DNA of 64,000 nt, taken from a virus. Taxonomy: Duplodnaviria; Heunggongvirae; Uroviricota; Caudoviricetes. Positions 6,210 through 27,617 of the stretch are shown here, one piece after another. The position numbers and the translations under genes were made by a program. The DNA lies in the IMG/VR virus record IMGVR_UViG_3300033146_004404, positions 1-64,000 of that record; one strand, 5' to 3'. The notes beneath the pieces were generated by a model that saw only the letters and a program-made list of their open reading frames with translations, was not told the origin of the DNA and did no database searches. The number at the start of each line of letters is the position of its first letter. Position 1 is the stretch's first letter.

Positions 6210-7334
6210 ATGAAAATAGCTGTAATTGGAATGGGTTTTGGAGACGAAGGCAAAGGTTTAGTTACAGACTATATTTGTAATAGTAGAAAAGTAGAATCTG
6301 TAACTAGATACTCTGGAGGACATCAGGCAGCACATTGTGTTGAAGAAGGAGATTTCAAACATATATTTTCCAACTTTGGATCAGGAACATATAGAGGTGT
6401 TCATACTAAATGGAAAGCAAAAACTTGTTATCCATTTAGTATCATGAATGAATATGAACTTTTAATTGATAAAATGCCGAAAGAAAAAATATCAATGACG
6501 ATAGATCCTGATACTCCTGTGACAACTCCATATGATATAGTAGCAAATTCTTTCAATAAGAGGAATATTAAAGATGGGTCTGTAGGGGTTGGTTTTGGAG
6601 AAACAATACAGAGAGAAGAAAACAACGTTCATCTTCACTTTAAGGATATTGCTTTTCCCGAAGTTTACGCAAAGAAAGTTTCTCTTGTAAAAGACTATTA
6701 CGAAAGAAAGATCGATCGTTCGATTGAAGCTCCTATAAGCCAGAAAGCATTTGACCTTTTTTTTACGGATAGCGAAAAAATTTATAAACTTTTCAGTGCT
6801 GAACCTAATATTGATCATAAACCAATAGAGTTGTTTGAAAGTTCACAGGGGCTTTTACTTGATATGGATTATGGATTTTTTCCTAATGTTACAAGATCAA
6901 GAGTTGGTATGCAAGAACTTGACTTTAATGATTCTTGTGATGAAGTTTTTTTAGTTACAAGAGCTTATCAAACAAGACATGGAAATGGATACTGTCAGGA
7001 TGAAGTTTTCTATCCTAATTATGGTGATAGGCCAGAAACAAATGTTACTGGAGAATTTCAGGGTGATTTCAAAACAAGGATTCTTGATCTTGATCTTTTG
7101 AAATATGCTATTGAATCAGATAAGTATTTGAGAAGTCGTGAAAATATAAATCTTGTTATTACTTGTCTTGACCATATAACTAACGGCAGTTATAGATATA
7201 TTGAAAAAGGTGAGCTTTATGAAACAAAGAAGATTTATGAGTTTATTGATAAGATCTGTGAGATAAAGCATTTCAATCAAGTATATGGAAGTTTTGGATC
7301 ATCAGCAGAAAATGTTAAATTGATCTACCGATAA
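6210..7334 (+). CDS. purA: adenylosuccinate synthetase-like protein (divergent, shortened PurA)
   Basis: N-terminal 'GMGFGDEGKG' P-loop (PurA GDEGKGK), 'YSGGHQAAH' (PurA GGHNAGH), and later 'TCLD' resembling the TKLD guanine-specificity motif. Confidence 0.6.
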   Translation: MKIAVIGMGFGDEGKGLVTDYICNSRKVESVTRYSGGHQAAHCVEEGDFKHIFSNFGSGTYRGVHTKWKAKTCYPFSIMNEYELLIDKMPKEKISMTIDPDTPVTTPYDIVANSFNKRNIKDGSVGVGFGETIQREENNVHLHFKDIAFPEVYAKKVSLVKDYYERKIDRSIEAPISQKAFDLFFTDSEKIYKLFSAEPNIDHKPIELFESSQGLLLDMDYGFFPNVTRSRVGMQELDFNDSCDEVFLVTRAYQTRHGNGYCQDEVFYPNYGDRPETNVTGEFQGDFKTRILDLDLLKYAIESDKYLRSRENINLVITCLDHITNGSYRYIEKGELYETKKIYEFIDKICEIKHFNQVYGSFGSSAENVKLIYR

Positions 7335-7366
7335 ATAAAGGAGCCAATTTGGCTCCTTTATTTTTA
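7335..7366. terminator. bidirectional terminator between convergent genes
   Basis: aataaaggagccaa-tt-tggctcctttattttt; A-run and T-run flanks. Confidence 0.7.
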
Positions 7367-8377
7367 GTATGGGAAGTTAGTTAATCCAGTTACACTTACT
7401 TTATGGTACATTGAATTACCATCAGTAACTTTTGTTATTCCGTATCTATTAAAGATAGCTAATTTACTTGAAAAGTTATCAGCATCTGTTTCTAATAAAC
7501 CAGTCATAACTTGATATGGTGAATAAATAATTCCGCTGCTGATATTTCCTTGACATTTTTTACCAACATACATGTCGTATGTTGTAGAGTCAAATGTATT
7601 AACATAAACATCAAGGTAATCTAATTTACCTATTTTGCTTAATACACCAAATTTTGGTTCTGGGCCAGCTACGAAGCCAGGCATTGAAACAACAACCTGA
7701 GCTAAAGTAGTTGGAACGATAACATAATTAGCAAGACCTTTTTTGGTTGCTGTTGCTATGTTTCCTGAAGCTGCCATTATTGCGGTTTTTAATTCATAGA
7801 GTTTGCTTAAGAATGTTTGTGTTGCTTTATCATAAGACCAAGGATACTCTATTGCTGTATGAAAATCTGAGTGTTCTTTTATTGCTTTCAGTACATCATA
7901 ATCAATACCAGAAGCTATTGCAACACCAACGGCAGCAGCTCTTTCTTTATCTAAATTGAACTTCAAAATTTTTAAATCTTGAGCGAGTTCTTTTGTGTAA
8001 TTAAGTAAAGCTTTTCTTGACTTAGCAACGACAATGCTCTCTCTTAATTTTAGAACGATGTTTGGAATGTCAGCATTTTCAGCAGTAGCAGAAAATGCTT
8101 CATCAAACGCAGCGCCTACTTTCAGGCCAGACAAAACATTTCCAGCTCCGTCTTCAACATCAAGGCCATATACTCTTCCTTCCTTAAAACTGACTGGCTG
8201 AGTATCTACCAAGTCTTTACTAGCTATATTTTCTTGAGTAAAGAAAATAAGCGGCTCTATTAGTTCTGGATGAAAACTACTGTTTGATGAAACTGTTCCA
8301 GCTTCATTTAAAGAGTTTTCAAGGATAGCTGAAGCTATCATTTTATCGCTTTCATTTAATTCATTAAAATATTTCAT
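7364..8377 (-). CDS. hypothetical protein (possibly structural or capsid-like)
   Basis: 337-aa ORF on the opposite strand with an AGGAGA RBS; converges on a bidirectional terminator at 7335-7366. No motif recognised. Confidence 0.4.
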   Translation of the reverse strand: MKYFNELNESDKMIASAILENSLNEAGTVSSNSSFHPELIEPLIFFTQENIASKDLVDTQPVSFKEGRVYGLDVEDGAGNVLSGLKVGAAFDEAFSATAENADIPNIVLKLRESIVVAKSRKALLNYTKELAQDLKILKFNLDKERAAAVGVAIASGIDYDVLKAIKEHSDFHTAIEYPWSYDKATQTFLSKLYELKTAIMAASGNIATATKKGLANYVIVPTTLAQVVVSMPGFVAGPEPKFGVLSKIGKLDYLDVYVNTFDSTTYDMYVGKKCQGNISSGIIYSPYQVMTGLLETDADNFSSKLAIFNRYGITKVTDGNSMYHKVSVTGLTNFPY

Positions 8378-8484: not shown

Positions 8485-9072
8485 ATGGCGATGATAATGG
8501 CTGATTTTGATAATGTTTTTGTAGGTGCTGTGGTTTATCTTGGTGAAGAAAAACTTTATGTCTACAAAGTAAATAAGAAATCCTTATATGTTGGTTCTAC
8601 TCCTGAAGAAAAAATCAGCAAAAAATGGAATGAAATAAAAAGCAAAGCAGTAACTTGGGTAAAATACATGGAAAGAAATGGCGGAAAGAAACTGTCATTT
8701 GCTGGACTAAAGATTTCTTCAGAGGAAGCTGCAAAAAGAACTGGATTTATGGCAATAAAAGAAGCCAGAGAGTCTGGACGTGATTGGCTCGGAAAGAAAG
8801 GAAGAGAGATTGTTTCAATGCTTCTTAAAAGAGACAAAAAAGGAAAGAACTCTTTAATCTTTCCAAATGAATTTGGAACTCATACCCTTGTATTACTTGC
8901 AATTCATCCTGATAAAAACGGTCAGGTTCTCTTGAGAATAGATCAAACTTATTTCTTCTATGATGAAAAGACTGAATTGTATGATCGGTTTGATTCCTTA
9001 AAGGATAAAGACGGTAAAAATATAATTTGGCCAGATCGCATTCAGGTTGAAAACCTGGCATTAACAGTATAA
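8485..9072 (+). CDS. hypothetical protein
   Basis: Consensus promoter copy 4 plus an AGAGGAG RBS. Confidence 0.5.
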   Translation: MAMIMADFDNVFVGAVVYLGEEKLYVYKVNKKSLYVGSTPEEKISKKWNEIKSKAVTWVKYMERNGGKKLSFAGLKISSEEAAKRTGFMAIKEARESGRDWLGKKGREIVSMLLKRDKKGKNSLIFPNEFGTHTLVLLAIHPDKNGQVLLRIDQTYFFYDEKTELYDRFDSLKDKDGKNIIWPDRIQVENLALTV

Positions 9073-9235
9073 AATAAAAAAAATAATAAATTTAAAAAAG
9101 TACTATTTAAAAAAAACAATATCTTAAAATTCTTGTCGCCGAACGTCCTACCCTAGTATCGGATAAAAACCCCTAGCATATACCATGTATAAGTCTCTCT
9201 ACCTCTTTTTTTTTTATTCTAATTTTATTATTTTT

Positions 9236-9280
9236 TATTTAAATAGATAAAAATTTATCTATTTAAATAAAAAAATGGAG
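9236..9280. repeat. AT-only perfect palindrome
   Basis: tatttaaatagataaaaatttatctatttaaata. Confidence 0.7.
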
Positions 9281-9336
9281 TTTTTTGAGAAAATAGAGGT
9301 TTTTTTTAATTCCTTGTGAAATTCTCAGAAGGGATT

Positions 9337-9365
9337 GACAAAGAAAGTAAAAAATGGTATGATCG
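9337..9365 (+). promoter_or_regulatory. variant promoter TTGACA-17-TATGAT
   Basis: gggaTTGACAaagaaagtaaaaaatggTATGATcgggg; a second -35-only copy of 'gggattgacaaagaaagtaaaa' at 9481-9502. Confidence 0.45.
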
Positions 9366-9372
9366 GGGTAGG

Positions 9373-9915
9373 AGGTAAAAAAAATAATTCACTGGATTTA
9401 GAGTTTTAGGATTTTAACATTTTTTATGGAATTGCTTGTAATTGCTACAAGTGAACTCCGAGTCAGTACCTTGAAAAAAAAAGGGATTGACAAAGAAAGT
9501 AAAACCGCTCAGGAATCCGATGACATAAAGCAGGACTAAACTCCGTCAGCAGGAGTCCGAATTAGATCTTTAATAATTTAGGGAAGGGCGAGAAGACTGG
9601 TCAAACGAGATAGGTTTGTGACAATCTATCTGGTAAAGATCAAGGATTCTCTATATATCGACAATGGTATATTCGGGTTTAACCTCTATTCGAAAGGTAG
9701 GGCGATAGCCATGATTTATACGGTCGAGTAGTCAGTTAAGAGTAAGTGGCCACAGTTCGGATTAGTCCGGATGGCTGGAAATAGCTGAGGAATTGCCGGT
9801 GGAGGGTCTAACGTTCCCAAAATGGATGGCAATTCAAAGTTACGATACAGGTGGGCTGATTATAAAGATATAAAGGATAGTAAAAACCCCATAAGATTAC
9901 CTTATGGGGTTTTGC
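9373..9915 (+). ncRNA. candidate structured non-coding transcript in a GC-richer insert
   Basis: Variant promoter TTGACA-17-TATGAT at 9337-9372. No ORF longer than about 20 codons over roughly 540 nt. Multiple local stems, ending in a rho-independent terminator at 9884-9916. Confidence 0.3.
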
Positions 9916-9916
9916 T
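9884..9916 (+). terminator. rho-independent terminator
   Basis: aaaaccccataag-attacc-ttatggggtttt. Confidence 0.65.
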
Positions 9917-9917
9917 G

Positions 9918-9981
9918 TTCGGATTTTGACAAAATGGAAATGTTTCACGTGAAACATCTGCATTGTGTCAAAATGATACAA
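9918..9981 (+). promoter_or_regulatory. 60-bp palindromic operator/promoter element, copy 1
   Basis: tttTGACAAAATGgaaATGTTTCACGTGAAACATctgCATTGTGTCAaaatgatacaaagg, with nested inverted repeats; directly upstream of the RBS of 9992. Confidence 0.5.
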
Positions 9982-9991
9982 AGGAGGTAAA

Positions 9992-10270
9992 ATGATAAAT
10001 CATTTTACTGCCGAGCGAGAGATCGCTCGGAATATCACTGCTGAAGAGGCGGCCATTTCTATGGCCGCCTCAAGGAATGAGATTTATGGGGTTCATGTGA
10101 GCCCCACGAAAAAGGCAAAAAAATGCCGAAATAAGAAACCTCAGCTTGAAATAGCTGAGGTTTCCATTGAGAGACTGGATCCTAACGGGATCCAGTTTCA
10201 GGATCGTCTTGCGTCTCTGAGGGCCAAAATAGCCCTCAGAGACGGAGTGGATTTGCGCTCAGTCAACTGA
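9992..10270 (+). CDS. hypothetical protein (GC-richer island)
   Basis: Strong RBS AAGGAGG; preceded by the 60-bp palindromic element. Confidence 0.45.
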   Translation: MINHFTAEREIARNITAEEAAISMAASRNEIYGVHVSPTKKAKKCRNKKPQLEIAEVSIERLDPNGIQFQDRLASLRAKIALRDGVDLRSVN

Positions 10271-10321
10271 GCGCAAAGATCGTTTGAGCCTAAAGGGCTT
10301 GCCAGAGTGCAAGCCAGCTTT

Positions 10322-10386
10322 AAAGAAAAGTATTGACTTTTCTTGTCAGTGGGATTTTACATAAGATCCTATTGACAAGAAAAGTT
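10322..10386 (+). promoter_or_regulatory. inverted-repeat element TTGACTTTTCTTGTCA / TTGACAAGAAAAGTTGG
   Basis: Two -35-like hexamers embedded in a 14-bp inverted repeat upstream of 10431. Confidence 0.3.
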
Positions 10387-10430
10387 GGTCGTATGACCGA
10401 CTTAAATAATGAAACCGTAAGGTAGCCGAA

Positions 10431-10766
10431 GTGGTAGCTCTTCAGGTAGAGATGAAAGAGTATCTGAAGGAAAGAAAAGCTTCAGAAAAAGTCATTGCAA
10501 TCGCAATGATATCAACAAAGATTTCTGATGGTGACGAAGTCACCTGCAGATTTAAGGACGGAGTGGTTGAGGGAGTGGTTGTCGCAAAACGTGACAAATC
10601 TTTGTCTATTCTAACACCGGATGTGCTGAACCTAAAAGGGCAGCCATCCAGACTATCACGGAGCTATGACTCCGTGATAGAAATAAATGGGATGGAGCTG
10701 GAAAAGTATTCAGCTCCATCCGCTAAAGCTGAGGTTGAGGTTGAAGCTTCTGAAGCTGTAAGCTGA
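10431..10766 (+). CDS. hypothetical protein with acidic EV/EA C-terminal tail
   Basis: ORF ends '...AKAEVEVEASEAVS'. The start is uncertain. Confidence 0.35.
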   Translation: MVALQVEMKEYLKERKASEKVIAIAMISTKISDGDEVTCRFKDGVVEGVVVAKRDKSLSILTPDVLNLKGQPSRLSRSYDSVIEINGMELEKYSAPSAKAEVEVEASEAVS

Positions 10767-10800
10767 TCAAAAATCAATAGCCCGTTTAGGGCTATTGATT

Positions 10801-10864
10801 TTGACAAAATGGAAATGTTTCACGTGAAACATCTGCATTGTGTCAAAATGATACAAAGGGGTGA
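10801..10864 (+). promoter_or_regulatory. 60-bp palindromic operator/promoter element, copy 2
   Basis: Near-identical copy upstream of 10868. A partial third copy (gacaaaatggaaatgttt) lies at 10944-10962 inside that ORF. Confidence 0.5.
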
Positions 10865-10867
10865 AAA

Positions 10868-11377
10868 ATGGCTGGAAAAAATGCCAAGCCAGTTCAAGAC
10901 TTAATGACCGCATTGCGGTTCGATAGTCTTGAGCTGAAATGCTTCGACAAAATGGAAATGTTTTCTCTATCAGGAATCTTAACGACTGATAGAGAAAAGG
11001 AAAAAGTGATCTATATGAATATGGATCACACGGAGACGAAAGAGCAAAAAGATATTGTATATATCTTTGCTCTTAATAACAAAATTCTGAAGGTTGGTTC
11101 AACAGGAACTAACCTCAGACAAAGACTTGCCAGTTACAATACTGGCAAGAAAAAATACGCTGATAGTGGAACATGTTCCACTACAAACTTTTTTGTTTTG
11201 CAAAGTTTGTTAAATATAAATGAACCGATTGCGGTTTATACATATTATCCTCCGAAAATGAAAATTGATGTTTTTGGTGAAGAACAGGAAGTTTCCTGTT
11301 CTAAGCTCTTTGAGAAAGCTATTCTAAAGAGCTTAAAGGACTCAGGTAATATGTCTATGTTCTGCACTCAGACATAA
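10868..11377 (+). CDS. GIY-YIG-like nuclease domain protein
   Basis: 'VYIFALNNKILKVGSTGTNLRQRLASY' resembles the GIY-x10-YIG ... R core. Preceded by the second copy of the 60-bp palindromic element. Confidence 0.45.
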   Translation: MAGKNAKPVQDLMTALRFDSLELKCFDKMEMFSLSGILTTDREKEKVIYMNMDHTETKEQKDIVYIFALNNKILKVGSTGTNLRQRLASYNTGKKKYADSGTCSTTNFFVLQSLLNINEPIAVYTYYPPKMKIDVFGEEQEVSCSKLFEKAILKSLKDSGNMSMFCTQT

Positions 11378-11539
11378 TGATTTCAATCAAGAGGCTTAAA
11401 CCTCTTGATTGAAAAATTTTAAGGAAGAAAATGAGTTTATTGAAACTGGGGTACTTTAAATGTATCCAATACTTAAGCGAGGTGAATAAATGATCGGATT
11501 TACTATAATAGTATTCTCTTATATAGCATTTAAAGCTAT

Positions 11540-12205
11540 ATGTTGTCTAAGAAAAAATGGCCTAAAATGGCTGAAGGAATTTATATGAAACTTAGGTTTA
11601 ATTTTGATGATACGTTTTGCGATTTTGACATTCCTTACATCATAAATGAAGGATTCATGACTGAAGAGTCTAAGAAACTCTATGCCTTTAATGAATTGGC
11701 TGAAGCTATTGAAGTTTTAAGCACTAAAAAAAGCAAGTGGTTTGACTATCTTTTAGATAACTGTTATACACTCATGGAAGCTGTTGAAAATGACGCTACC
11801 TTTTTGCTCTTGAAAAAAACAGGTAACTTTGAATATTGTATAGAGGATTATTCATTATTTGAAACTTATGATGACGCTCTTGATTCTTTTTATGACAATT
11901 TTGGTGAAGATTATTGCAGACAAAAAGAAGATTTTTATGTTCTTGATATGATGGAAGATAAAATGATAGAACTTAATAAAACAATTGAGCTTTCACAAGA
12001 AAGCATTTTAATTCTTCATGACAATAAGCTTGTCGATCTTGATAAAGCTAAGGGTGTTTATGACCTATGGGTCAAAAGCAAATTAGGACTTGTTTACGTT
12101 ATGAGTGAAAAACTCAATGATATTAAGAGCTTTATTGATAACAATTCTGTTTATACTATTGATGACTTTTCAATCTTAAACCATGAAAAAAACATGGAAT
12201 TATAA
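11540..12205 (+). CDS. hypothetical protein
   Basis: ORF; the start may be at an internal ATG (11564 or 11576). Confidence 0.45.
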   Translation: MLSKKKWPKMAEGIYMKLRFNFDDTFCDFDIPYIINEGFMTEESKKLYAFNELAEAIEVLSTKKSKWFDYLLDNCYTLMEAVENDATFLLLKKTGNFEYCIEDYSLFETYDDALDSFYDNFGEDYCRQKEDFYVLDMMEDKMIELNKTIELSQESILILHDNKLVDLDKAKGVYDLWVKSKLGLVYVMSEKLNDIKSFIDNNSVYTIDDFSILNHEKNMEL

Positions 12206-12248
12206 AAATCAGGACAATCTTATTACAATAACATTCTAAGGGAAAAAA

Positions 12249-12473
12249 ATGAAAATTGAAAATGGTTTCTACGTATTAAGATATTTCTGGACTGATTCTT
12301 TTAACCAGAAAAGGACTGAATTGTTTGCCGCTAAAGTATTTGATGGTATTGTGATGGATCATGTCGGAGGTGAAGAGGATCCTATTGATTTGAATAAAAT
12401 TGAAGAAACTGACTTTGATAAAATTGAAGTAGTTGAAAAGTTTGAAGTGGAAGAGCTTTTTCAAGGGGAATAA
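12249..12473 (+). CDS. hypothetical protein
   Basis: ORF with RBS. Confidence 0.4.
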   Translation: MKIENGFYVLRYFWTDSFNQKRTELFAAKVFDGIVMDHVGGEEDPIDLNKIEETDFDKIEVVEKFEVEELFQGE

Positions 12474-12665
12474 ATGAGAAAAATAATTGTTGCAACTAAG
12501 TATGAAGTTTTTTTTGGAACAAAGGAAAATTATACTTTAGTTAGAGTGTTTACAAATAGCAAGACAGAAGCAGGTAGAACTACTTTAAATTTACAGGAAC
12601 CGTTCCTAGTAAGAAAAGCATGTTCTGATCCATTTGAAGGATCAAACGTTATAGAAGATTTTTAA
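12474..12665 (+). CDS. hypothetical protein
   Basis: ORF overlapping the upstream stop. Confidence 0.4.
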   Translation: MRKIIVATKYEVFFGTKENYTLVRVFTNSKTEAGRTTLNLQEPFLVRKACSDPFEGSNVIEDF

Positions 12666-12925
12666 ATAAGGTAGTAAAGTATGTTAAAAGAAACTGTATA
12701 TATACTTATCAAAATTAAGGATACAAGAAGCTTAAATGAAATTCAACTATATAGTTGAATCTATATTCAGTTATATAAGTGACATTGAAAGAAAGCTTTT
12801 TATCTATATTGCAGATTTACAGAAGGTGAGAAAATTAATCAGAAGTATATGAAAATATAACAGGCTAGATTTTTATTCCGAAATTGTAAAGTTGCAAAAA
12901 AGGGTTTTTAAAGGAAGGAAACTAA

Positions 12926-13807
12926 ATGAAAATACAAAGTCTGAGTATAGTAATTGCTGGTGGATGCGCAAACAGTTGTAAATTTTGTGTCTCAAAAGTC
13001 ACAAAAGATAAAGTTAATTTTGAGAACCTGATGAAGCCAGAAAATAAACAAGACTATATAGACAGACTTGAATATGCTCAAGTTCTCGGAGCTAATACTG
13101 TTATCATTACAGGAAACGGGGAGCCGGTAATGAATCAAAAGAATTTACAGTATTTCTTTGACCGAAACTCAGAAATGAAAAACCCTTTTATTAACATTGA
13201 AATTCAGACAAGCGGCATAATGCTTGATGATAATATGTTAAAGTATTTGAAAGAAAATGGGGTGAAAACTATATCCCTTTCACTTTCTAATATTTTCAGT
13301 TCTGGAATAAATGGTGAAATTAATCAGACACCAGTTAAATATTTTGTAGACATTGAACTATTATGCGAAAAAATCAAGGCATTATTTAACCTTAGACTTT
13401 CGCTGAATATGTCAATCGTATATACAAAAGGTTATAAATCTTCAAGTTTTTCTATGAAATATGGTGTAAATAAGATCTTTAATGAAGCAAGAAGACTCGG
13501 AGCAGATCAGCTAACTTTTAGAAAGCTGTATAAATCTTCTGATGACAATCCTGTAAATAAATGGATTGAAGAAAATGATGTTTCACACGAACTATGGGAA
13601 GTTTTAAAAAACTATATATATGAAAATGGCAATGCTCTTGAAAGGCTTCCATTCGGAGCATTGAAATATTCAGTTGATGGAATATCAACTGTTGTTGATG
13701 ATGACTGTATGAGTAAAAAAAATGCCGAAGCTGTAAAGTTTTTGATTCTTCAAACTAATGCAAAACTGTATACAAGGTGGGATGATAAAGGTTCACTGAT
13801 AATGTAA
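12926..13807 (+). CDS. radical SAM domain protein
   Basis: N-terminal 'GGCANSCKFC' CX3CX2C cluster and 'ITGNGEP' (GGE-like SAM motif); AAGGAAGG RBS. Confidence 0.6.
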   Translation: MKIQSLSIVIAGGCANSCKFCVSKVTKDKVNFENLMKPENKQDYIDRLEYAQVLGANTVIITGNGEPVMNQKNLQYFFDRNSEMKNPFINIEIQTSGIMLDDNMLKYLKENGVKTISLSLSNIFSSGINGEINQTPVKYFVDIELLCEKIKALFNLRLSLNMSIVYTKGYKSSSFSMKYGVNKIFNEARRLGADQLTFRKLYKSSDDNPVNKWIEENDVSHELWEVLKNYIYENGNALERLPFGALKYSVDGISTVVDDDCMSKKNAEAVKFLILQTNAKLYTRWDDKGSLIM

Positions 13808-13820
13808 CTGAGGAGGAACT

Positions 13821-13976
13821 ATGAAAGTAATAATAAAAGAAAGTGAAATAAAATATGCTCCTACATCGAAGTTAGTATATTTAAACGATGTTTTGTCCGG
13901 AAAAAATGAGTATGCAAACCTTAAAGAAAATATAAGGGCAGAGCTTAAAGAGAGAAAGAAGAAAAGACAATCTTGA
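13821..13976 (+). CDS. small hypothetical protein (51 aa)
   Basis: GAGGAGG RBS 6 nt before the ATG. Confidence 0.3.
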   Translation: MKVIIKESEIKYAPTSKLVYLNDVLSGKNEYANLKENIRAELKERKKKRQS

Positions 13977-14001
13977 CAGAAAAAGAATAATATTCTATAA
14001 T
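13973..14001 (+). promoter_or_regulatory. consensus early promoter copy 5 (spacer variant)
   Basis: TTGACAgaaaaagaataatattcTATAAT; precedes 14031. Confidence 0.65.
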
Positions 14002-14448: not shown

Positions 14449-15678
14449 ATGAAATATGAAAAAATAAGAGAGAAGCTTGAAAACTTAAACAGCAACAGGA
14501 ATCACTATCAAATATCAAACGATGTTTGTACTCCGATGTCATTAGTGGAAATAATGGTATCTAAAATTCCAAAAGGTTTCTGGAAAAAAAAGGATGTTCG
14601 TGTATTAGACCCGTGTGCCGGTAATGGAAATTTTCCGGCCTATATAGAAGAAAGATTCAGACAAAACAAAAATGACAGCTATGAAATTGTAGCTAATGAG
14701 ATCAATCCTTTTCGGATTGAAAACTTAAAAAAGATACTTCCAGATATAACAGTATCAGAACGGGGTTTTTTAAGTTTTCCGGATGATGAGAAATATGATT
14801 TAATTATTGCAAATCCACCTTACGCTCAATTTACAGAGAGTGGGGGAAGGGCAGCAAAAAATCATAATATGTCAAGGAGTTTTGTAAGAAAATCATTAAC
14901 TTTGCTTAATGATAATGGTTATCTTGTGTATATTATTCCTGATAATTGGATGTCACTTTCTGACAGAAATGACATTGTAAAGTTATTAAGCGAGTATCAA
15001 TTTTTATACCTTGACATTCATAACGCAAAAAAATACTTTCCTAATGTTGGAAGTAGCTTTACATGGTTTTGTTTAAGAAAATCTGAAAACAAAACTCCTG
15101 TAATTATTAACAATGGTTATAAATGGAAGCTAGTGGACTTTTGTCCTATTGATAAAGGATCTGAAAACATTCCTTTGTTTTATACAAGAGAGGTCAGATC
15201 TATTGTAAATAAAACTCTTAATGCTGATTGTAAAAGAATCGAAGTCGAGACAACATCAGACTTACATAAATACACTAAAAAGGATATGTTTGGAGAACGA
15301 AGTTCCGATTTTAAATATAAAATATGGCATACCCAGAATCAGGTAGTATGGAGTAAAAGAGAGCATAAGTTCCAGAATGGATGGAAAGTTTTTATATCAT
15401 TAACTTCCTACTACTCAACATTTATTGAGGAAAATTCTGGAATGACTCAAAGTATAGGTTTTGTTTTGTGTAATAGTGAAAATGAAGCAAAGGAAATAAA
15501 AAAGATTTTAGATCATCCTTTGTATGTTTTCTTGAATAATATTCATAGATACGGAAATTTTAATAATGTGAGAATATTGCAGAAGTTTCCTTATCCTGAT
15601 GATGTTGATGATATATATGGAAATTTTAATATAACAGACTCCGAGAAGCAATTAGCTTTGAACTTTTTGAAAACTTGA
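14449..15678 (+). CDS. N6-adenine DNA methyltransferase (gamma-type motif order)
   Basis: Motif I 'VLDPCAGNGNF' followed by motif IV 'IIANPPYAQF'. Confidence 0.8.
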   Translation: MKYEKIREKLENLNSNRNHYQISNDVCTPMSLVEIMVSKIPKGFWKKKDVRVLDPCAGNGNFPAYIEERFRQNKNDSYEIVANEINPFRIENLKKILPDITVSERGFLSFPDDEKYDLIIANPPYAQFTESGGRAAKNHNMSRSFVRKSLTLLNDNGYLVYIIPDNWMSLSDRNDIVKLLSEYQFLYLDIHNAKKYFPNVGSSFTWFCLRKSENKTPVIINNGYKWKLVDFCPIDKGSENIPLFYTREVRSIVNKTLNADCKRIEVETTSDLHKYTKKDMFGERSSDFKYKIWHTQNQVVWSKREHKFQNGWKVFISLTSYYSTFIEENSGMTQSIGFVLCNSENEAKEIKKILDHPLYVFLNNIHRYGNFNNVRILQKFPYPDDVDDIYGNFNITDSEKQLALNFLKT

Positions 15679-17035: not shown

Positions 17036-17779
17036 ATGAGTTTTGAAAAAGCAAAAAGAATCGCACAGATTCTACAAGATAACGGATTCAAAGCTGTCTT
17101 TGCTGGCGGTGCTGTTCGGGATATGGTTCTTGGCGTCGAGCCACATGATTTCGATGTGGCAACTTCAGCAAGACCTGAAGATGTTAAAAGAATTTTTATC
17201 AACTCTAGTTTTGTAGGCGAAAGTTTTGGTGTATCACTTGTTGAAGGCATTGAAGTCGCATCATTTAGAATTGATAAAAGTCAGGTTGATGGTAGAAAAC
17301 CAAACAGTATTGAATTTGCTTCAATGGAAGAGGATTCAAAACGCAGAGACCTGACAATCAATGCTCTGTTCTGGGATCCGATTAGTGAAGAATTCTTTGA
17401 CTTTGTTGGTGGAATGAAAGACATCGAAGAAAAAATAATAAGATTTGTTGGTGATCCAATTAAAAGAATAGAAGAAGATAACTTGAGAATAATGAGAGCT
17501 ATCAGATTTGCTCATAAGTTGAACTTTACTCTTAGCAAGAGTACTACTCTTGCGATTGTTAATAATGCTGAAAAAGTAAAGAGTCTGTCAGGTGATAGAA
17601 TTCTTGAAGAACTAAAGAAGGGTATTGTCTTAGATAAACCTTCTAAGTTTATTTCTCTCTTGTTTTCACTTGGTATTTTGAGACATATTCTTCCTGAAAT
17701 AACTGATCTTTCAGGTTGCGAACAACATATAAAATGGCACCCAGAAGGTGCAACAGCTCAAAAGATTATTTGTGACTAA
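17036..17779 (+). CDS. cca: tRNA nucleotidyltransferase (CCA-adding enzyme), N-terminal head/neck fragment
   Basis: 'GGAVRDMVLGVEPHDFDVAT' class-II nucleotidyltransferase signature and 'RRDLTINAL'. Ends '...WHPEG' followed by a short tail, then stop. Confidence 0.75.
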   Translation: MSFEKAKRIAQILQDNGFKAVFAGGAVRDMVLGVEPHDFDVATSARPEDVKRIFINSSFVGESFGVSLVEGIEVASFRIDKSQVDGRKPNSIEFASMEEDSKRRDLTINALFWDPISEEFFDFVGGMKDIEEKIIRFVGDPIKRIEEDNLRIMRAIRFAHKLNFTLSKSTTLAIVNNAEKVKSLSGDRILEELKKGIVLDKPSKFISLLFSLGILRHILPEITDLSGCEQHIKWHPEGATAQKIICD

Positions 17780-17840
17780 ATATCTGCAAAACAAAAAGTT
17801 GGCGTTGGAAAAATGCTTAACTTTTTTAACGGAGGACTGA

Positions 17841-18512
17841 GTGAAACTAGGAGAAAAAATTCCTTTAGATCCAAAAAATAAAGATCATTACGATAAAACA
17901 AAATATAAAATAACTCCAGGTGACGTTTTTGTTCATACAATGAAGGTTTTGGATAACATCGAATCAAAAGATTGGCGTGTTAGACTTGCTGCTTTATTTC
18001 ACGACATTGGCAAACCTGCAACTGCTGTTGATAAAGGTGAAGGTCGAATTTCAAACAAAGGTCATGATAAAGAAGGCGCAAAGATGGTTTTTGAAATTGG
18101 TAAAAGATTGTCTATGTCAAATGAAAACATTGCCTTAATTTCAAATCTAGTTAAGGATCATATGAACTTTAAAGAAGTTAAGAATATGAAAAGATCAACT
18201 CTTAGACGTTTTCTTTCTAAACCTCATATTGTTGAACTAATCGAACTTTCCAAAGCTGATAGTCTTGGTACTGATTTTGAGCACGATATGTCATTCATTG
18301 ACTTTGCAAAAAATCAGTTGAAAAATTTTGACGATTTGAATGAACCTGTTATGCCAGATCCTTTTGTTGATGGTCATGATTTGATTGCTATGGGCTTCAA
18401 GCCTAGTCCAAAATTTAAAGTTATGTTGGATAAAGTTATGGATTTGCAATTGGAAAATAAAATCAACAGTAAAGAAGAAGGAATCGATTTCATCGTAAAA
18501 AAATTTATTTGA
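17841..18512 (+). CDS. cca: CCA-adding enzyme C-terminal HD-domain fragment
   Basis: GTG start with GGAGGA RBS; 'PGDVFVHT' and 'LFHDIGKP' HD motifs. Continues the HPEG|DVxxHT motif that is split from the upstream ORF. Confidence 0.7.
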   Translation: MKLGEKIPLDPKNKDHYDKTKYKITPGDVFVHTMKVLDNIESKDWRVRLAALFHDIGKPATAVDKGEGRISNKGHDKEGAKMVFEIGKRLSMSNENIALISNLVKDHMNFKEVKNMKRSTLRRFLSKPHIVELIELSKADSLGTDFEHDMSFIDFAKNQLKNFDDLNEPVMPDPFVDGHDLIAMGFKPSPKFKVMLDKVMDLQLENKINSKEEGIDFIVKKFI

Positions 18513-23043: not shown

Positions 23044-23049
23044 TAATTT

Positions 23050-23118
23050 GCCGGATTAACTCAAGGAAGAGTGTCAGAATTGAACTGAAAGTCGTGGGTT
23101 CGATTCCCACATCCGGTA
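23050..23118 (+). tRNA. tRNA, anticodon probably UUG (Gln)
   Basis: Acceptor gccggat/atccggt, D-stem actc/gagt, T-arm gtggg-ttcgatt-cccac. The anticodon loop has A33 and a 27:43 mismatch. Confidence 0.5.
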
Positions 23119-23163
23119 TAGACCGTTTGACACTAACAGCAATCAAATGAAGAAAAAACTGCA

Positions 23164-23199
23164 AATTTTAAGGTGTGGGTTCGATTCCCACTACGATTG
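23164..23199 (+). other. tRNA-like minihelix (acceptor stem plus T-arm only)
   Basis: aatttta-ag-gtggg-ttcgatt-cccac-tacgatt-g, with no D or anticodon arm. Confidence 0.35.
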
Positions 23200-23266
23200 G
23201 TCATCGTATGGTGTAATGGTAGCATTAATCATTAACGTGTCGAGACTAAAAAGAAAGGGGAGAAAA

Positions 23267-24127
23267 TTGTTTTATGTAAACGAACAAAAGAAAAGGAGTC
23301 TTATAAAATCTCTTCCTAGTCTTAATGAAACTACTTTAGTCAATTTTTTTGACGAAATAGATTTCAGCCTACTAGGCGAAACAAAAACTCGTGATGTTTT
23401 TGATCACATCTATTCAAAAACTGAAAAGAGAATTATTTTATTTCTTAATAAAGCGAAGGTTGAAAGTTCAAATACTTCTTCTAAAAATGGAAATAAAATT
23501 ACCATAAACAATCAAAGGTTTGATGAAGTGTTTATGTCTCATCTAGCTGCAGGAATTTCTGCAGAAAAATTTGAAGAACTCTTTCCTTATATACGCAGAA
23601 TAAATGGGGCTTTTTACTATTTTGATAAAAATGGAAATTCATTAAATAATTACTATTTTGATATGTTTGAGTATAATGCAGTAGAATCAGGTATTGCCGC
23701 CGATATGGAAGCAGTGATAGAGGCCAAAGAAAAAGATTATGGAGATAAGAAAATGGGGAAAATGACTAACACTGTAAAGAATGTTGTAGAGATGAATAAA
23801 TCAGCTGGTAAGCAGGCAGCTCTTGTAAAAATTGGAAAGACTGCAAACCATGCAGTGATTGAAGTTCTACAGAAGAAAGTCATTCCAAAGAAATACAAGA
23901 AAATTGTAGAGAGTCCTTTTTTCGGTCTGGCTATAGCTAATGTTTCAGCAGTTGCAATGAAAGAATATGCTTCCGAAAGAAGTGATGGAGCAAAAGTAGA
24001 AGCAGTCGCTGACGCAATGCTTTTAAGTTCAATGCTTGAAATTACTGATATGATTGATCTTAATAAAATCATAACAGATGTGATCGAATCAGTTGATCTT
24101 AAGTCGCTCGGGTTCAGTGAAGATTAA
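23267..24127 (+). CDS. hypothetical protein
   Basis: The six-frame ORF starting at 23147 overlaps tRNA-like sequence. A TTG start at 23267 after AAAGGGGAG is more plausible. Confidence 0.4.
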   Translation: MFYVNEQKKRSLIKSLPSLNETTLVNFFDEIDFSLLGETKTRDVFDHIYSKTEKRIILFLNKAKVESSNTSSKNGNKITINNQRFDEVFMSHLAAGISAEKFEELFPYIRRINGAFYYFDKNGNSLNNYYFDMFEYNAVESGIAADMEAVIEAKEKDYGDKKMGKMTNTVKNVVEMNKSAGKQAALVKIGKTANHAVIEVLQKKVIPKKYKKIVESPFFGLAIANVSAVAMKEYASERSDGAKVEAVADAMLLSSMLEITDMIDLNKIITDVIESVDLKSLGFSED

Positions 24128-24159
24128 GAAAATTAGCCCGAAGGGCTAATAAATAATAT

Positions 24160-24234
24160 CAGTGTGTGACGGGAAAGGCTTATCCGTGCTCCCCTGGAAG
24201 GAGGAAAATGTGGGTTCGAGTCCCACCTCACTGA
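24160..24234 (+). tRNA. tRNA, anticodon probably UGG (Pro)
   Basis: Acceptor cagtgtg/ctcactg, D-stem acgg/ccgt, anticodon loop cctggaa, T-arm gtggg-ttcgagt-cccac. Confidence 0.45.
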
Positions 24235-24414
24235 CTTTGGTAAATAGTGATAATAGAGAAATATCTCTTGGCACTGGAGAAAGTAATCTGGACGTAAGTC
24301 TTAATTCAATTCCGGAAAAAGAATTAGGATAAGAAGCGATGAAGAAATCGTAAAGGATCATACCCGAGTATAGGGAGACTGCAGGTTCGAATCCTGCGTT
24401 GCCAATATTTTAAT

Positions 24415-24443
24415 TTGACAAAAAAAGAATAATATGGTATAAT
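24415..24443 (+). promoter_or_regulatory. consensus early promoter copy 13
   Basis: Identical core; tRNA-Asp starts about 22 nt after the -10. Confidence 0.75.
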
Positions 24444-24464
24444 TAAGTATAAAGAAATATAAAT

Positions 24465-24538
24465 GCCTTAATAGTTTAATTGGCTAAAGCACTGGTCTGT
24501 CAAATCAGAGAGTCCGAGTTCAATCCTCGGTTAGGGCG
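24465..24538 (+). tRNA. tRNA-Asp (GUC)
   Basis: Full cloverleaf: acceptor gccttaa/ttagggc, anticodon loop ctGTCaa, T-arm ccgag-ttcaatc-ctcgg. Directly downstream of promoter copy 13. Confidence 0.8.
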
Positions 24539-24563
24539 TAAACAAAATTTTATGGAGTGTTAG

Positions 24564-25013
24564 TTGATAACATTAACAGAACAGAATAAAAAAGAGGCAG
24601 CAAGAGTTGTAAGTAATTTGATTCATGAATATCAGGATGTTAAAGATTATTTTATGGATTATAATGACGAGATGGAGAGCATCGAAGGCTTGATTTTTGA
24701 ATATATTGAAAATCATAAATGGCTTCTACAAGAGAAGATTCCTTTTACTGTTACAGTAAATCAGGCTTTTCACTCTTGGTATGAAAATGTATTCTTGTAT
24801 CAGACCTCAGCAATGAGAGCGACGGGAATAAGAAGAGCAGTAATTCATCAGTCGAACAAGGAATTGTTTGACTTAGTCTCAAAAGAATATTATAGTATGA
24901 CAGATAAAGATGATATCTTCTGCTATGCTATAGCTTGTCAAAGAGTCATAAAGAAATATTCTACAAAATGGATATATAAGTTTCTAGCGAAAATTTATAT
25001 GAAAAAAGCATAA
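24564..25013 (+). CDS. hypothetical protein
   Basis: ORF (TTG or a later ATG start). Confidence 0.4.
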   Translation: MITLTEQNKKEAARVVSNLIHEYQDVKDYFMDYNDEMESIEGLIFEYIENHKWLLQEKIPFTVTVNQAFHSWYENVFLYQTSAMRATGIRRAVIHQSNKELFDLVSKEYYSMTDKDDIFCYAIACQRVIKKYSTKWIYKFLAKIYMKKA

Positions 25014-25071
25014 GAGCATTTTACAGTAGTTTTACTGTTTGGAAAGAGTGTTTTAAAGTAAAATGATTTTT

Positions 25072-25143
25072 GGTCTCATAGTATAATGGTTAGTACATAT
25101 GGTTTTCATCCATAAAATCGGAGTTCGATTCTCCGTGAGACTG
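25072..25143 (+). tRNA. tRNA-Glu (UUC)
   Basis: Acceptor ggtctca/tgagact, anticodon stem tatgg/ccata with loop ttTTCat, T-arm cggag-ttcgatt-ctccg. Confidence 0.75.
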
Positions 25144-25156
25144 TAAAGGAATAATA

Positions 25157-25690
25157 ATGAAACACAGAAATGTTTTAAAGTATTCTGAAAGACCATTTAA
25201 GGACATTTCTGAGATGAACGTGAAGCTCCTAGAAAATATCAATAATTCAGTTGAACCTGGAGATGAGATATACTTTTTAGGTGACATAGGGCACTCTCAC
25301 AAAGAAGTGAAGCTCTTTTTTGACAATTTAAAGAGTGGAATTGGTTTTCATTGGATTATTGGAAATCACGATAAAAAGTTATTGACAGCAGCACCAAAGA
25401 AAAGAGTAAGTAGCATTTCATATATTAAAGAGATTTATGTGGAAAAAAAACCTATAATTCTATGTCATTATCCAATGCTTACATGGGATAAGAGTCATTA
25501 TAATTCATGGCATTTATTTGGACATCATCATAAAAACGGACATGATAAAGAAGGTCTTGAAAGTAGACTTACTGGAAAAATGTTTAATGTTAATCTTGAG
25601 TTCAATGATTACCAGATGTATAGTGAAAAAGACATTATAAGAATAATGATGGCAAAAGAAAACAATTGGGATTTTATAAAAGAACGTTAA
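25157..25690 (+). CDS. metallophosphoesterase (calcineurin-like)
   Basis: 'IYFLGDIGHSH' (GDxxxR-like) and 'IIGNHDKKL' (GNHD/E) motifs. Confidence 0.7.
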   Translation: MKHRNVLKYSERPFKDISEMNVKLLENINNSVEPGDEIYFLGDIGHSHKEVKLFFDNLKSGIGFHWIIGNHDKKLLTAAPKKRVSSISYIKEIYVEKKPIILCHYPMLTWDKSHYNSWHLFGHHHKNGHDKEGLESRLTGKMFNVNLEFNDYQMYSEKDIIRIMMAKENNWDFIKER

Positions 25691-25697
25691 AAAAAAC

Positions 25698-25726
25698 TTG
25701 ACAAAAAAAGAATAATATGGTATAAT
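25698..25726 (+). promoter_or_regulatory. consensus early promoter copy 14
   Basis: Identical core; precedes the small ORF and the Thr-Phe-Ala-Met-Asn tRNA array. Confidence 0.75.
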
Positions 25727-25744
25727 TAAGTATAAGGAGAAAAG

Positions 25745-25924
25745 ATGAAATCTTTAACCGTTAAGGAAATGATTGAGAAATTACAAGAGTTGCCGATGGA
25801 TGAAGAAGTCGTTCTTTTTGGAGAGGGAAAAATCTTCCCTTGCCTTGTGATCAATAGGCTTCAATTTGGAGAAGGACATCATATTGAAATAGCTGGTGGT
25901 TGGAACCCTTTAGAAGAAAATTAA
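25745..25924 (+). CDS. small hypothetical protein (59 aa)
   Basis: AAGGAGAAAAG RBS then ATG, downstream of promoter copy 14; precedes the tRNA array. Confidence 0.35.
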   Translation: MKSLTVKEMIEKLQELPMDEEVVLFGEGKIFPCLVINRLQFGEGHHIEIAGGWNPLEEN

Positions 25925-25928
25925 TATT

Positions 25929-26001
25929 CGCATCCATAGCACAACGGATTAGTGCAGGAGTCTTGTAAACTTCTGATCTGGGTTCGATTCCCAGTGGATG
26001 C
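25929..26001 (+). tRNA. tRNA-Thr (UGU)
   Basis: Acceptor gcatcca/tggatgc, D-stem gcac/gtgc, anticodon loop ctTGTaa, T-arm ctggg-ttcgatt-cccag. Confidence 0.8.
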
Positions 26002-26004
26002 TTT

Positions 26005-26063
26005 TAGGCACTTACAGCAATCAAAACTATAATTAGAAAGAATGTAAAAAGCAAAGTGTCTAG
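26005..26063 (+). ncRNA. conserved inter-tRNA hairpin element (copy)
   Basis: tAGGCACTtACAGCAATCAAA...AGTGTCTAg; one copy of a recurring element. Confidence 0.4.
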
Positions 26064-26070
26064 TTTTTAT

Positions 26071-26143
26071 GCCGTTTTAGCTCAGTAGGTAGAGCGTCTG
26101 TTTGAAGAGCAGAGCGTCTCCGGTTCAATTCCGGGAGGCGGCA
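26071..26143 (+). tRNA. tRNA-Phe (GAA)
   Basis: Acceptor gccgttt/aggcggc (with G-U pairs), D-arm tagctcagtaggtagagc, anticodon loop ttGAAga, T-arm tccgg-ttcaatt-ccggg. Confidence 0.75.
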
Positions 26144-26146
26144 AAT

Positions 26147-26217
26147 GGGGTTATAATATAACGGAATTATGGAAGACCTGCAATCTTCATATCGGGGTTC
26201 AACTCCCCGTAGCTCCA
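26147..26217 (+). tRNA. tRNA-Ala (UGC)
   Basis: Acceptor ggggtta/tagctcc with a G3:U70 wobble (the Ala identity element), anticodon loop ccTGCaa, T-arm cgggg-ttcaact-ccccg. Confidence 0.7.
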
Positions 26218-26224
26218 TAAACGT

Positions 26225-26296
26225 AGCGGGGTTGAGGAATTGGAACCTCATAAGGCTCATAACCCTATCATGCAAGTTCGAGTCTTGCCTCCGCCT
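26225..26296 (+). tRNA. tRNA with CAU anticodon (Met or Ile2)
   Basis: D-stem gagg/cctc, anticodon loop ctCATaa, T-arm gcaag-ttcgagt-cttgc. A1:C72 mismatch. Confidence 0.5.
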
Positions 26297-26298
26297 TT

Positions 26299-26358
26299 TA
26301 GACATTAACAGCAATCAAAAAAAACCAAACTGTTAATTTGAAAATAAAAAATGTCTAG
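26299..26358 (+). ncRNA. conserved inter-tRNA hairpin element (copy)
   Basis: TAGACATTAACAGCAATCAAA...ATGTCTAG. Confidence 0.4.
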
Positions 26359-26460
26359 TTTTACTGAAAGTTAGTGTCGGGACGAGAGAGCACAGTAGTA
26401 TGAAAATACTTCCAAGCCTTCTCCCAGACTTTTTCTGTAGTCTTAAAAGAACAGTAACAT

Positions 26461-26534
26461 TTCCTTGAAGCTTATCTGGTAAAGCGCCAAATCGTTAATT
26501 TGGAGTCTTCTTGGTTCGAGTCCAAGCAGGGGAG
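26461..26534 (+). tRNA. tRNA, anticodon probably GUU (Asn)
   Basis: Acceptor ttccttg/cagggga (all paired including G-U), D-stem gctt/aagc, anticodon stem ccaaa/tttgg with loop tcGTTaa, T-arm cttgg-ttcgagt-ccaag. Confidence 0.5.
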
Positions 26535-27037: not shown

Positions 27038-27039
27038 AG

Positions 27040-27408: not shown

Positions 27409-27412
27409 ATTT

Positions 27413-27432: not shown

Positions 27433-27434
27433 AT

Positions 27435-27615: not shown

Positions 27616-27617
27616 TT

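Follow-up and report, generated by a model that had tools for sequence, protein, structure and literature searches.

Within the 64,000-nt window analyzed here (the whole stretch, positions 1 to 64,000 of the IMG/VR viral record IMGVR_UViG_3300033146_004404, Caudoviricetes), positions 9883 to 11414 form an island of about 42 consecutive local hairpins on the plus strand. The island runs over three open reading frames (ORFs), namely, ORF92 (9992-10270), ORF111 (10431-10766), and R (10868-11377), the last of which encodes a GIY-YIG restriction endonuclease of 169 amino acids (aa). It is the chief anomaly of the region and was overlooked in an earlier, sequence-only reading of this DNA, which concentrated on an ORF-less transcript upstream, a duplicated palindrome, and the nuclease gene. 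Furthermore, the cores of the two palindromes are identical to parS, the consensus site of the chromosomal ParB/Spo0J protein. Our preferred interpretation, held tentatively and with somewhat less than even confidence, is that the cassette would keep the nuclease scarce relative to its methylase by combining terminators, parS/ParB, and structure-saturated mRNA.

The extent of folding in the island is exceptional on both strands. Folding of 9870-11425 yielded 42 hairpins with 68% of the bases paired. On the plus strand, the minimum free energy (MFE) of 9993-10430 was -213 kcal/mol against a shuffle mean of -117 (z = -14.9), that of 10431-10800 was -151.8 against -94.4 kcal/mol (z = -11.5), and that of the R segment (10860-11420) was -203.6 against -116.1 kcal/mol (z = -16.3), with z values for R between -12 and -16 across estimates. 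The minus strand gave -193.1 against -109.8 kcal/mol for 9993-10430 (z = -12.4) and -183.2 against -107.0 kcal/mol for R (z = -13.6). Both strands fold far beyond chance because the stems are nearly all Watson-Crick: 316 of the 340 stem pairs belong to this class. A scan of 300-nt segments along the window returned z values of -5 to -13 in eight consecutive segments, with starts from 9801 to 11201, and this was the sole such run in the 64 kb. Perfect hairpins of at least 9 bp are similarly concentrated, with 13 of the 40 in the window falling inside the island (8.4 per kb versus 0.43 per kb elsewhere).

Within the island, these stems also account for the compositional shift that had been noted earlier. 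The rise in guanine-plus-cytosine (GC) content is real, since the 1-kb bin 10001-11000 reaches 0.434, the highest of 64 bins (the next is 0.380), and 200-nt segments between 9600 and 10800 range from 0.43 to 0.485, in a window with an overall GC of 0.335. Within the island, however, the stems have a GC of 0.48 and the remainder only 0.29, which is below the genome mean. The island's higher GC thus reflects the stems and not a foreign composition.

The folding arises from codon choice together with amino acid replacements in R. When synonymous codons were shuffled, the MFE of R (-182 kcal/mol) lay far below that of the shuffled versions (-108 +/- 7; z = -10.8), and the same held for ORF92 (-140.3 versus -87.0 +/- 7.4; z = -7.2) and ORF111 (-132.0 versus -90.2 +/- 5.5; z = -7.6). 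The flanking controls ORF195, ORF221, and the 5' part of the methylase gene M gave z values of 0 to -1.9 in the same procedure. One perfect hairpin of R, at 11126-11149, pairs CTT GCC AGT with ACT GGC AAG, that is, the codons of L87, A88, and S89 with those of T92, G93, and K94. Of these residues, S89 and G93 never vary within the family; at position 92, at least 90% of homologs have Cys where R has Thr (ACT); and positions 87-88 are I/V-Q/G elsewhere, while the codons of Leu87-Ala88 are complementary to those of Gly93 and Lys94. A second hairpin, at 11164-11183, is built from the invariant GTCST codons and the variable Ser100. Homologous genes fold in an ordinary way, with z values of -3.2 to +1.0 for four R homologs on other contigs, -2.5 to +1.0 (mean, -0.45) for 20 R homologs in bacterial genomes, and -0.9 for the ORF92 homolog. 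Additionally, about 230 kb of related phage DNA contained neither a parS site nor a hairpin island. In the literature, we found no cassette of a double-stranded DNA phage that had been recoded as one unbroken series of hairpins, nor any consensus parS serving as a junction element of a restriction gene; the coverage of that search was incomplete, and this is absence of evidence only.

The two strands are not equivalent. Over the island, the folds of the two strands differ by 70 kcal/mol in favor of the sense strand (MFE of -663 versus -593 kcal/mol), and wobble pairs are unevenly shared, with 45 G-U pairs in the sense and 19 in the antisense fold (composition-expected share of 0.52; P = 0.002). 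The stem between ORF92 and ORF111 (10335-10386, plus strand) illustrates this: four of its 24 pairs are G-U pairs, which are valid on the plus strand only. The -35 hexamer and spacer of the upstream promoter P1 recur, in degenerate form, as the right arm of this stem. In addition, the island begins and ends at transcript boundaries, with no symmetry about the parS sites. The G-U excess and the position of the edges speak for selection acting on the sense transcript or, where it is single stranded, on the sense DNA strand.

Such a pattern might mean that the hairpins serve the RNA itself, as armor against endoribonucleases or RNA-guided immunity (host toxins, a phage shut-off RNase, Cas13, or type III CRISPR) or as a decoy for a host factor that binds hairpins or double-stranded RNA, with the three longest stems acting as RNase III processing sites. 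The sense bias of the wobble pairs and the edges at the hairpins T1 and T3 fit this idea, as does the exactly intercistronic position of the three stems of at least 24 bp (9923-9974, 10335-10386, and 10798-10849); the phage also invests in RNA functions, including a transfer-messenger RNA (tmRNA), 21 tRNAs, a CCA/poly(A) polymerase-like protein, an HD-domain protein, and a weakly ProQ-like protein. Nevertheless, the loops have no common motif and give no sign of a shared binding protein, this cassette is the only one armored in the 64 kb, no RNase gene was identified in the window, and the exact parS match is left without explanation. We therefore judge RNA protection or decoy function to be unlikely.

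The perfection of the stems could alternatively be a mutational by-product, in which template switching within quasi-palindromes, at forks stalled at ParB-parS or terminators or on a nontemplate strand exposed by heavy transcription, was fixed wherever the proteins tolerated it. Classical work on T4 reportedly also dealt with template switching at inverted repeats. The overwhelming share of perfect Watson-Crick pairs noted above, the strong minus-strand folding (z = -12 to -14), and a third, partial copy of the palindrome inside R, which shows that short stretches have been copied locally, are what would be expected from such a process. One study (PMC8604942) documents template switching that homogenizes the arms of inverted repeats in coding DNA. 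On the other hand, about 42 hairpins in 1.5 kb have no counterpart in the other 62 kb of the window, in the approximately 230 kb from relatives, or around the parS sites of other phages. The sharp edges at T1 and T3, their asymmetry around parS, and the sense-strand wobble excess are equally hard to reconcile with it, the G+C enrichment of the stems suggests selection for stability, and R tolerates a substitution at a residue that at least 90% of homologs share. A purely mutational origin consequently appears quite unlikely to us.

Three terminator-like hairpins delimit the island and its units. T1 (9883-9916), at the left edge, has A-run and T-run flanks and corresponds to the terminator that had been proposed for the end of the ORF-less stretch; it consists of a perfect 13-bp stem (9883-9913) with a 5-nt loop and a 3' arm ending in TTTT. 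The automated terminator scan did not list T1, as its T-run lies inside the maximal stem, and its flanks are such that it could work in both directions. T2 (10770-10802) is a perfect 14-bp stem, again with A-run and T-run flanks, and T3 (11381-11414), with a 14-bp stem, marks the right edge.

Immediately downstream of T1 and overlapping T2 lie the two copies of the palindromic element, which had been described as a nearly identical 60-bp repeat and proved to be somewhat longer, with 71 nt and 96% identity (9922-9992 and 10797-10867, both on the plus strand). Within each copy lies a palindrome of 52 nt, whose two 26-nt arms show 88% complementarity. In the first junction element, the palindrome (9923-9974) is followed by the Shine-Dalgarno sequence AGGAGG and by the first base of the ORF92 ATG (9992-9994); in the second, the palindrome (10798-10849) is followed by the Shine-Dalgarno sequence GGGGTG, and the element ends one base before the ATG of R at 10868. 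The expected partial third copy is also present within the nuclease ORF (10943-10963, plus strand), where it matches the left arm of the palindrome at 20 of 21 positions and encodes FDKMEMF, overlapping a 5-residue insertion in R that is absent from 15 other aligned homologs. The suggestion that the element carries -35/-10-like hexamers held only in part: a TTGACA is present, but no acceptable -10 hexamer lies 16 to 18 nt away. A sigma-70 promoter within the 71 nt was rejected, as the candidate GTGTCA-17-TAAAAT overlaps the ATG.

The palindrome core is, from its sequence, a consensus parS, that is, a predicted ParB loading site. Both parS-1 (9941-9956) and parS-2 (10816-10831), 875 bp apart, match TGTTTCACGTGAAACA at 16 of 16 positions, and a search of the literature for this sequence identified it as the consensus binding site of chromosomal ParB/Spo0J. 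With the flanking A and T, the resulting 18-mer ATGTTTCACGTGAAACAT occurs exactly twice in the window (0.05 expected). The arrangement in which a TTGACA flanks parS had no match in 185,579 genomes.

It might be argued that this match is coincidental and that the 52-nt palindromes are merely the largest hairpins of the island, involved in RNA processing or attenuation with no ParB at all. The island abounds in palindromes, so that palindromy as such costs nothing, and the ATGTTT portion of the half-site also occurs in the copy inside R, which would fit a local origin of the arm. The 64-kb window also yielded no ParB (neither the GERRxRA box II motif nor a phmmer match with a Spo0J sequence), which is a weak negative. 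However, by our own estimate, the 8-nt half-site at a spacerless center has a probability of about 1.5e-5 per palindrome and of less than 1e-3 for the island, and all other hairpins of the island have loops of 3 to 12 nt. Moreover, the identical 18-mer recurs in intergenic positions in at least 119 IMG/VR viral contigs (L004 to L122; GC of 27 to 70%), against none for a composition-matched control palindrome. Coincidence is thus very unlikely in our judgment.

The viral parS sites often lie 10 to 60 nt upstream of a ribosome-binding site and precede varied genes, which by eye include holin, terminase, single-stranded DNA-binding protein, and lysin-like genes. Some contigs carry several copies, up to five, as in L089 (6135, 7313, 7493, 8571, and 12472), L092, and L113 (355, 1981, 6508, and 8098). 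A ParB GERRxRA motif was found near the site in only 1 of the 119 loci. The occurrence of parS before genes in unrelated viral contigs suggests that the arrangement described here is not a one-off. Hairpin islands do not accompany the parS sites of other phages, with 0.23 perfect hairpins per kb near the sites versus 0.14 per kb away from them.

The gene behind the second parS had been recognized as GIY-YIG-like, and this assignment can be sharpened to a Type II restriction endonuclease of the Hpy188I family. Residues 19-169 of R align with residues 28-180 of PDB 3oqg_A (E = 6.5e-26); the protein matches the PADLOC REase_II profile over its full length (5.5e-28) and a PHROG endonuclease family (7e-9), and its match to Pfam GIY-YIG is weak. 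In an alignment of 16 sequences, R retains each of the 25 invariant columns, and the family residues kept include Y65, K75, G77, R86, S89-Y90-N91, G93, GTCSTTN, and E149. It departs from the majority at some near-invariant columns (Cys92 to Thr and Arg98 to Ala). Homologs of R elsewhere adjoin a methylase of the Eco57I/N6_Mtase type. The same type is encoded here by M (14449-15678, plus strand), an N6-adenine DNA methyltransferase with an NPPY motif (assigned with Pfam; PADLOC MTase_II, 2.9e-110) that is 56% identical to the methylase adjoining the nuclease homolog in contig L002. Since the methylase type that flanks R homologs is also present in the window, R and M are, on sequence grounds, a Type II restriction-modification (R-M) system of the Hpy188I type, split in this phage by 3 kb and four ORFs. 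The interval between them (11540-13807) has no consensus promoter, and one of its four ORFs (12926-13807) encodes a radical-SAM protein. The Hpy188I site TCNGA is depleted in the window, with 159 occurrences versus 249 +/- 17 under a first-order Markov model; in the hairpin island, it shows no significant enrichment (12 versus 7.3 +/- 2.7; P = 0.06).

Identification of R as a restriction endonuclease with a cognate methylase disagrees with the notion of a mobile GIY-YIG element. A homing endonuclease was not supported, as R is a single-domain protein collinear with Hpy188I, its homologs pair with methylases, and no group I intron was detected. The broader model in which the segment is an acquired, self-regulated module, with the ORF92 product repressing itself and the nuclease, or a GIY-YIG mobile-element remnant, accounts for the same palindrome standing before ORF92 and R, for a small basic protein being encoded first, and for the presence of R-M genes at different places in related phages. 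Nonetheless, ORF92 and ORF111 matched no Pfam, PHROG, or NCBIfam family, including helix-turn-helix (HTH) and other DNA-binding families, and had only self matches among 5.8e9 proteins. Single-sequence AF2 models were weak (pLDDT of 68 for ORF92 and 49 for ORF111), and a Foldseek search with the ORF92 model returned nothing below E = 0.8. ORF111, an orphan with an alternative ATG at 10452, is regarded as putatively coding.

The related phage contig L126, whose capsid protein is 60% and whose ORF195 is 49% identical to the proteins encoded here, proved informative in this respect. It encodes an ORF92 homolog (phmmer, 1e-5; tblastn, 5e-4; GIHVSPTK motif) in a syntenic position, directly after the ORF195 homolog and a promoter cluster, and its locus has ordinary phage promoters and neither palindrome nor parS. 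This synteny indicates, as far as sequence comparison allows, that the small, basic protein of ORF92 comes from a gene native to the early region of this phage group, as opposed to an imported one. Thus, a role of ORF92 as the repressor acting on the palindrome was not borne out, given the missing HTH match, the palindrome-free homolog, and a palindrome core that equals the ParB site exactly. We place very little confidence in the self-regulated module as a whole. A controller-protein R-M system likewise found no support, as neither ORF upstream of R matched an HTH family and the operator is not coinherited with ORF92.

What remains of the proposed horizontal acquisition concerns the R-M genes and not a single foreign block. 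In a comparison with relatives, R and M were contiguous at another locus in contig L125 and absent from the other relatives examined; this patchiness makes it plausible that the nuclease gene was acquired, while the native status of ORF92 and the confinement of high GC to stems speak against import of the segment in one piece. By protein, no close relatives were found in IMG/VR using R, ORF195, or an R-family profile, and the capsid protein retrieved only two short contigs from the metagenome collection.

The relaxed promoter that had been noted ahead of the ORF-less stretch, P1 (TTGACAAAGAAAGTAAAAAATGGTATGAT; 9335-9363, plus strand), has the structure TTGACA-17-TATGAT with an upstream TG and agrees with the consensus at 11 of 12 positions. 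It is a divergent member of a family of 29-nt promoters (TTGACAAAAAAAGAATAATATGGTATAAT) with 27 near-invariant copies in the window, all on the plus strand, at sites from 4426 to 61592; a pattern search gave 28 matches against 0.6 expected. The copy at 8427 drives ORF195, and the family is common to nine IMG/VR contigs, with tandem copies in L126. Its spacer is as conserved as the hexamers, which suggests recognition by more than the host sigma-70. The next member downstream of P1 is a consensus-type promoter (13973-14001, plus strand) that drives ORF133 and the methylase, the interval from 9363 to 13973 being free of members. P1 has its -35 hexamer and spacer within a 24-nt direct repeat (AAGGGATTGACAAAGAAAGTAAAA), present in two exact copies on the plus strand (9329-9352 and 9481-9504; 0 expected by chance). 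The second copy is the 5' half of the promoter without a -10 hexamer, and the GC-rich sequence begins directly after it at 9505, so that the 9504/9505 boundary looks like a rearrangement junction.

Between P1 and T1, the DNA is indeed free of long ORFs: no ORF exceeds 37 codons in 9365-9990, and TAA, TAG, and TGA stops occur in all six frames of 9300-9990. A recoded gene was considered, as the phage has a tRNA with a CTA anticodon, and was ruled out; since TAA and TGA also interrupt each frame, suppression of TAG creates no gene. We treat this stretch as a long untranslated leader of about 545 nt (predicted at 9370-9916, plus strand, with ends placed from the promoter and terminator), with a GC-rich core at 9505-9882. 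The idea that it is unusually rich in stems and a candidate structured noncoding RNA did not hold up. The core has a z of -2.25 against a window background of -1.4 +/- 1.9, and its ensemble is diffuse; the z of -5.4 for the whole leader is carried by the terminator and AT-rich hairpins. A search of Rfam 15, covering the window at gathering score and 9000-11500 at E <= 10, found only tRNAs and tmRNA elsewhere in the window. The best scores in 9000-11500 (27 bits against a threshold of 59, and hence subthreshold) fell on the T1 stem, and the tRNA/tmRNA scan found none in the region. The leader region had no DNA similarity in 50,697 phage records, 72,556 plasmids (distant mode), or the relatives, which leaves no related sequences for covariation.

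Two short matches link the leader with the genes downstream. Within 9763-9790, 15 nt are antisense to 10641-10655 of ORF111 (14/15) and the following 13 nt are identical to 10148-10160, the 3' arm of a hairpin in ORF92. They hint at pairing between leader and mRNA, and neither is significant alone. Derivation of the leader from a decayed duplicate of the downstream units was ruled out, as only these 13-nt and 15-nt matches exist.

A promoter-driven, ORF-less transcript of about 545 nt beside two consensus parS sites is also reminiscent of a plasmid-like maintenance module, in which the P1 transcript would prime or activate replication, like ColE1 RNA II or the RNA origins of mycobacteriophages, parS would provide centromere function in a carrier or plasmid-prophage state, with the hairpins forming a single-strand initiation site or origin. 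A perfect, nearly pure A+T palindrome at 9231-9274 (21-nt arms and 2-nt center) lies in a tract with a GC of 0.22 to 0.25 directly upstream of P1 and would suit such a role. There is precedent in the mycobacteriophages RedRock and Alma, in which a noncoding RNA of about 0.5 kb without ORFs, located by parABS, is needed for prophage replication (PMC7157519). Unlike those loci, the present one has a different parS type and a leader that is not unusually structured and ends at a strong terminator, and the 64 kb yielded no parA, parB, or rep gene, the neighboring ORFs being without Par or Rep domains. The hairpins lie inside functional coding sequence, and GC skew shows no switch at this locus. 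Phages with T4-like capsids are, moreover, typically virulent. We give hardly any credence to a maintenance function.

Restraint of the nuclease in several layers is, by comparison, the most economical reading of the combined features, namely, a nuclease able to cut every unmethylated copy of its site, the variant promoter, the leader, the terminators, the shared junctions, and the folded messages. M stands behind a consensus promoter, whereas the nearest promoter upstream of R is the variant P1, and the leader, T1, and T2 lie in between. ORF92 with ORF111 and R alone form two units, each of which opens with a 71-nt parS-ribosome-binding site-ATG junction and closes with a terminator-like hairpin. 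In the first layer, T1 and T2 would be passed only by read-through or regulated transcription. In the second, a protein of the ParB family, supplied by the host or by a gene located elsewhere on the phage, would load at the two parS sites and hinder RNA polymerase at the junctions. In the third, the structure-saturated mRNA would be translated slowly, and since it would offer little single-stranded RNA to Rho or endoribonucleases, even a poorly translated mRNA could survive. The payoff would be that unmethylated host DNA is cleaved while methylation keeps the replicating DNA of the phage ahead of cleavage.

Several observations weigh against this layered restraint. The island is a single instance without relatives in which conservation could be assessed. 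Translation is usually far more sensitive to folding around the start site than to folding within a coding sequence. A perfect 10-bp hairpin encloses the AUG of ORF92 and the two final G residues of its Shine-Dalgarno sequence, but the ribosome-binding site of R is largely free and its AUG only partly paired. No toxicity is known for ORF92 or ORF111, although both are structured to the same degree as R. The junction elements have no convincing sigma-70 -10 hexamer, and a ParB gene was not found in the 64 kb. Finally, the incoming phage genome is already methylated, so that a delay is less needed than for a newly transferred R-M system.

We also regard as possible, if rather doubtful, that the 1.5-kb island consists of messages deliberately recoded, at synonymous and even at conserved nonsynonymous positions, into hairpins bracketed by exact parS copies that, with a hijacked host ParB, lock, time, or shield a toxic gene, and that many phages use host ParB likewise. 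If true, this would be a mode of toxic-gene control that has no earlier description, acting through ParB at the DNA level and near-total folding of the mRNA.

The phage genome around the cassette is large and AT rich. Its minus strand encodes a major capsid protein of the T4 gp23 type at 7364-8377 (Pfam Gp23; 1.4e-30), and a protein identical to R is also on record from a 201-kb JGI contig; the best reading is that the cassette is carried by a T4-like phage of about 200 kb and that the segment is an expression cassette of its early region. Beside the capsid gene, a 374-aa ORF (6210-7334) appears by eye to be adenylosuccinate synthetase-like, with a GDEGKG motif near the N terminus, and is syntenic in L125. 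In a related phage, the major capsid gene is split (L126, 1835-3478; L127, 11108-12751), with residues 1-180 and 178-331 parted by about 650 nt, possibly by an intron or other insertion. The 21 tRNAs are spread over 23049-41579 and include one with a CTA anticodon (27434-27508; an amber suppressor that ARAGORN labels Pyl) and another whose anticodon loop is odd (24160-24235), and the phage-encoded tmRNA (32523-32810) specifies the tag DETETYYAQVA. The CCA-adding or poly(A) polymerase-like protein, the HD-domain protein, and the weak ProQ-C-like match (Pfam) are all encoded within 17036-18512.

Comparison with known systems helps to define what is familiar here. The Hpy188I system of Helicobacter pylori (TCN^GA; a GIY-YIG Type IIP enzyme with an N6-adenine methylase; PDB 3oqg/3or3) provides the homolog of R and the type of methylase found in M. 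Unlike that system, the present one is phage borne, its two genes are 3 kb apart, and R stands behind terminators and parS and is saturated with hairpins, in contrast to 24 ordinary homologs. T4 endonuclease II (DenA), which starts host DNA breakdown, is also a GIY-YIG enzyme of a T4-like phage, and R has a weak match to PDB 2wsh (E = 0.15). By analogy, R is plausibly a functional counterpart of DenA that would cut unprotected host DNA; it differs in being closer to a true restriction enzyme and in that protection would come from a methylase instead of hydroxymethylcytosine.

The parS sites are of the type at which the ParB-CTP clamp loads on chromosomes. In contrast to chromosomal parS, they lie in a T4-like phage, at the center of a 52-nt palindrome between a terminator and a ribosome-binding site, with neither parA nor parB found in the 64 kb. 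Their position directly upstream of genes is shared with ParB-type silencers, such as KorB on RK2 and the ParB of Pseudomonas aeruginosa at parS3/parS4 upstream of PA0011/PA0013, where chromosomal ParB at intergenic parS sites represses the adjacent genes (PMC7022226). Compared with these, silencing in the phage is putative. C-protein/C-box R-M systems likewise place a small ORF and the nuclease gene each behind the same palindrome and restrain R relative to M, but they have an HTH C protein, whereas here no such protein is encoded, the palindrome is parS, and M has its own unit with a consensus promoter. The mRNAs of type I toxins offer another parallel, with strong intramolecular structure in the message for a dangerous protein and, here, the buried ORF92 start; hok and aapA mRNAs are locked by such structure (PMC6733600). 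The present case differs in its far larger scale, with about 42 hairpins spread across 1.5 kb and three ORFs; an antisense RNA was not identified, and the ribosome-binding site of R is largely free.

Phage R-M systems and parS are each known already; here they are joined in an unusual way, together with the nearly end-to-end folding of a conserved gene, for which we found no earlier description. If the structure is functional, the island would be a natural test of RNA or DNA structure overriding protein-level constraint and would show a virus restraining a nuclease that is able to cut its own replicating genome. The parS finding also raises the question of whether lytic phages recruit host ParB, and possibly SMC, or use ParB as a ready-made repressor.

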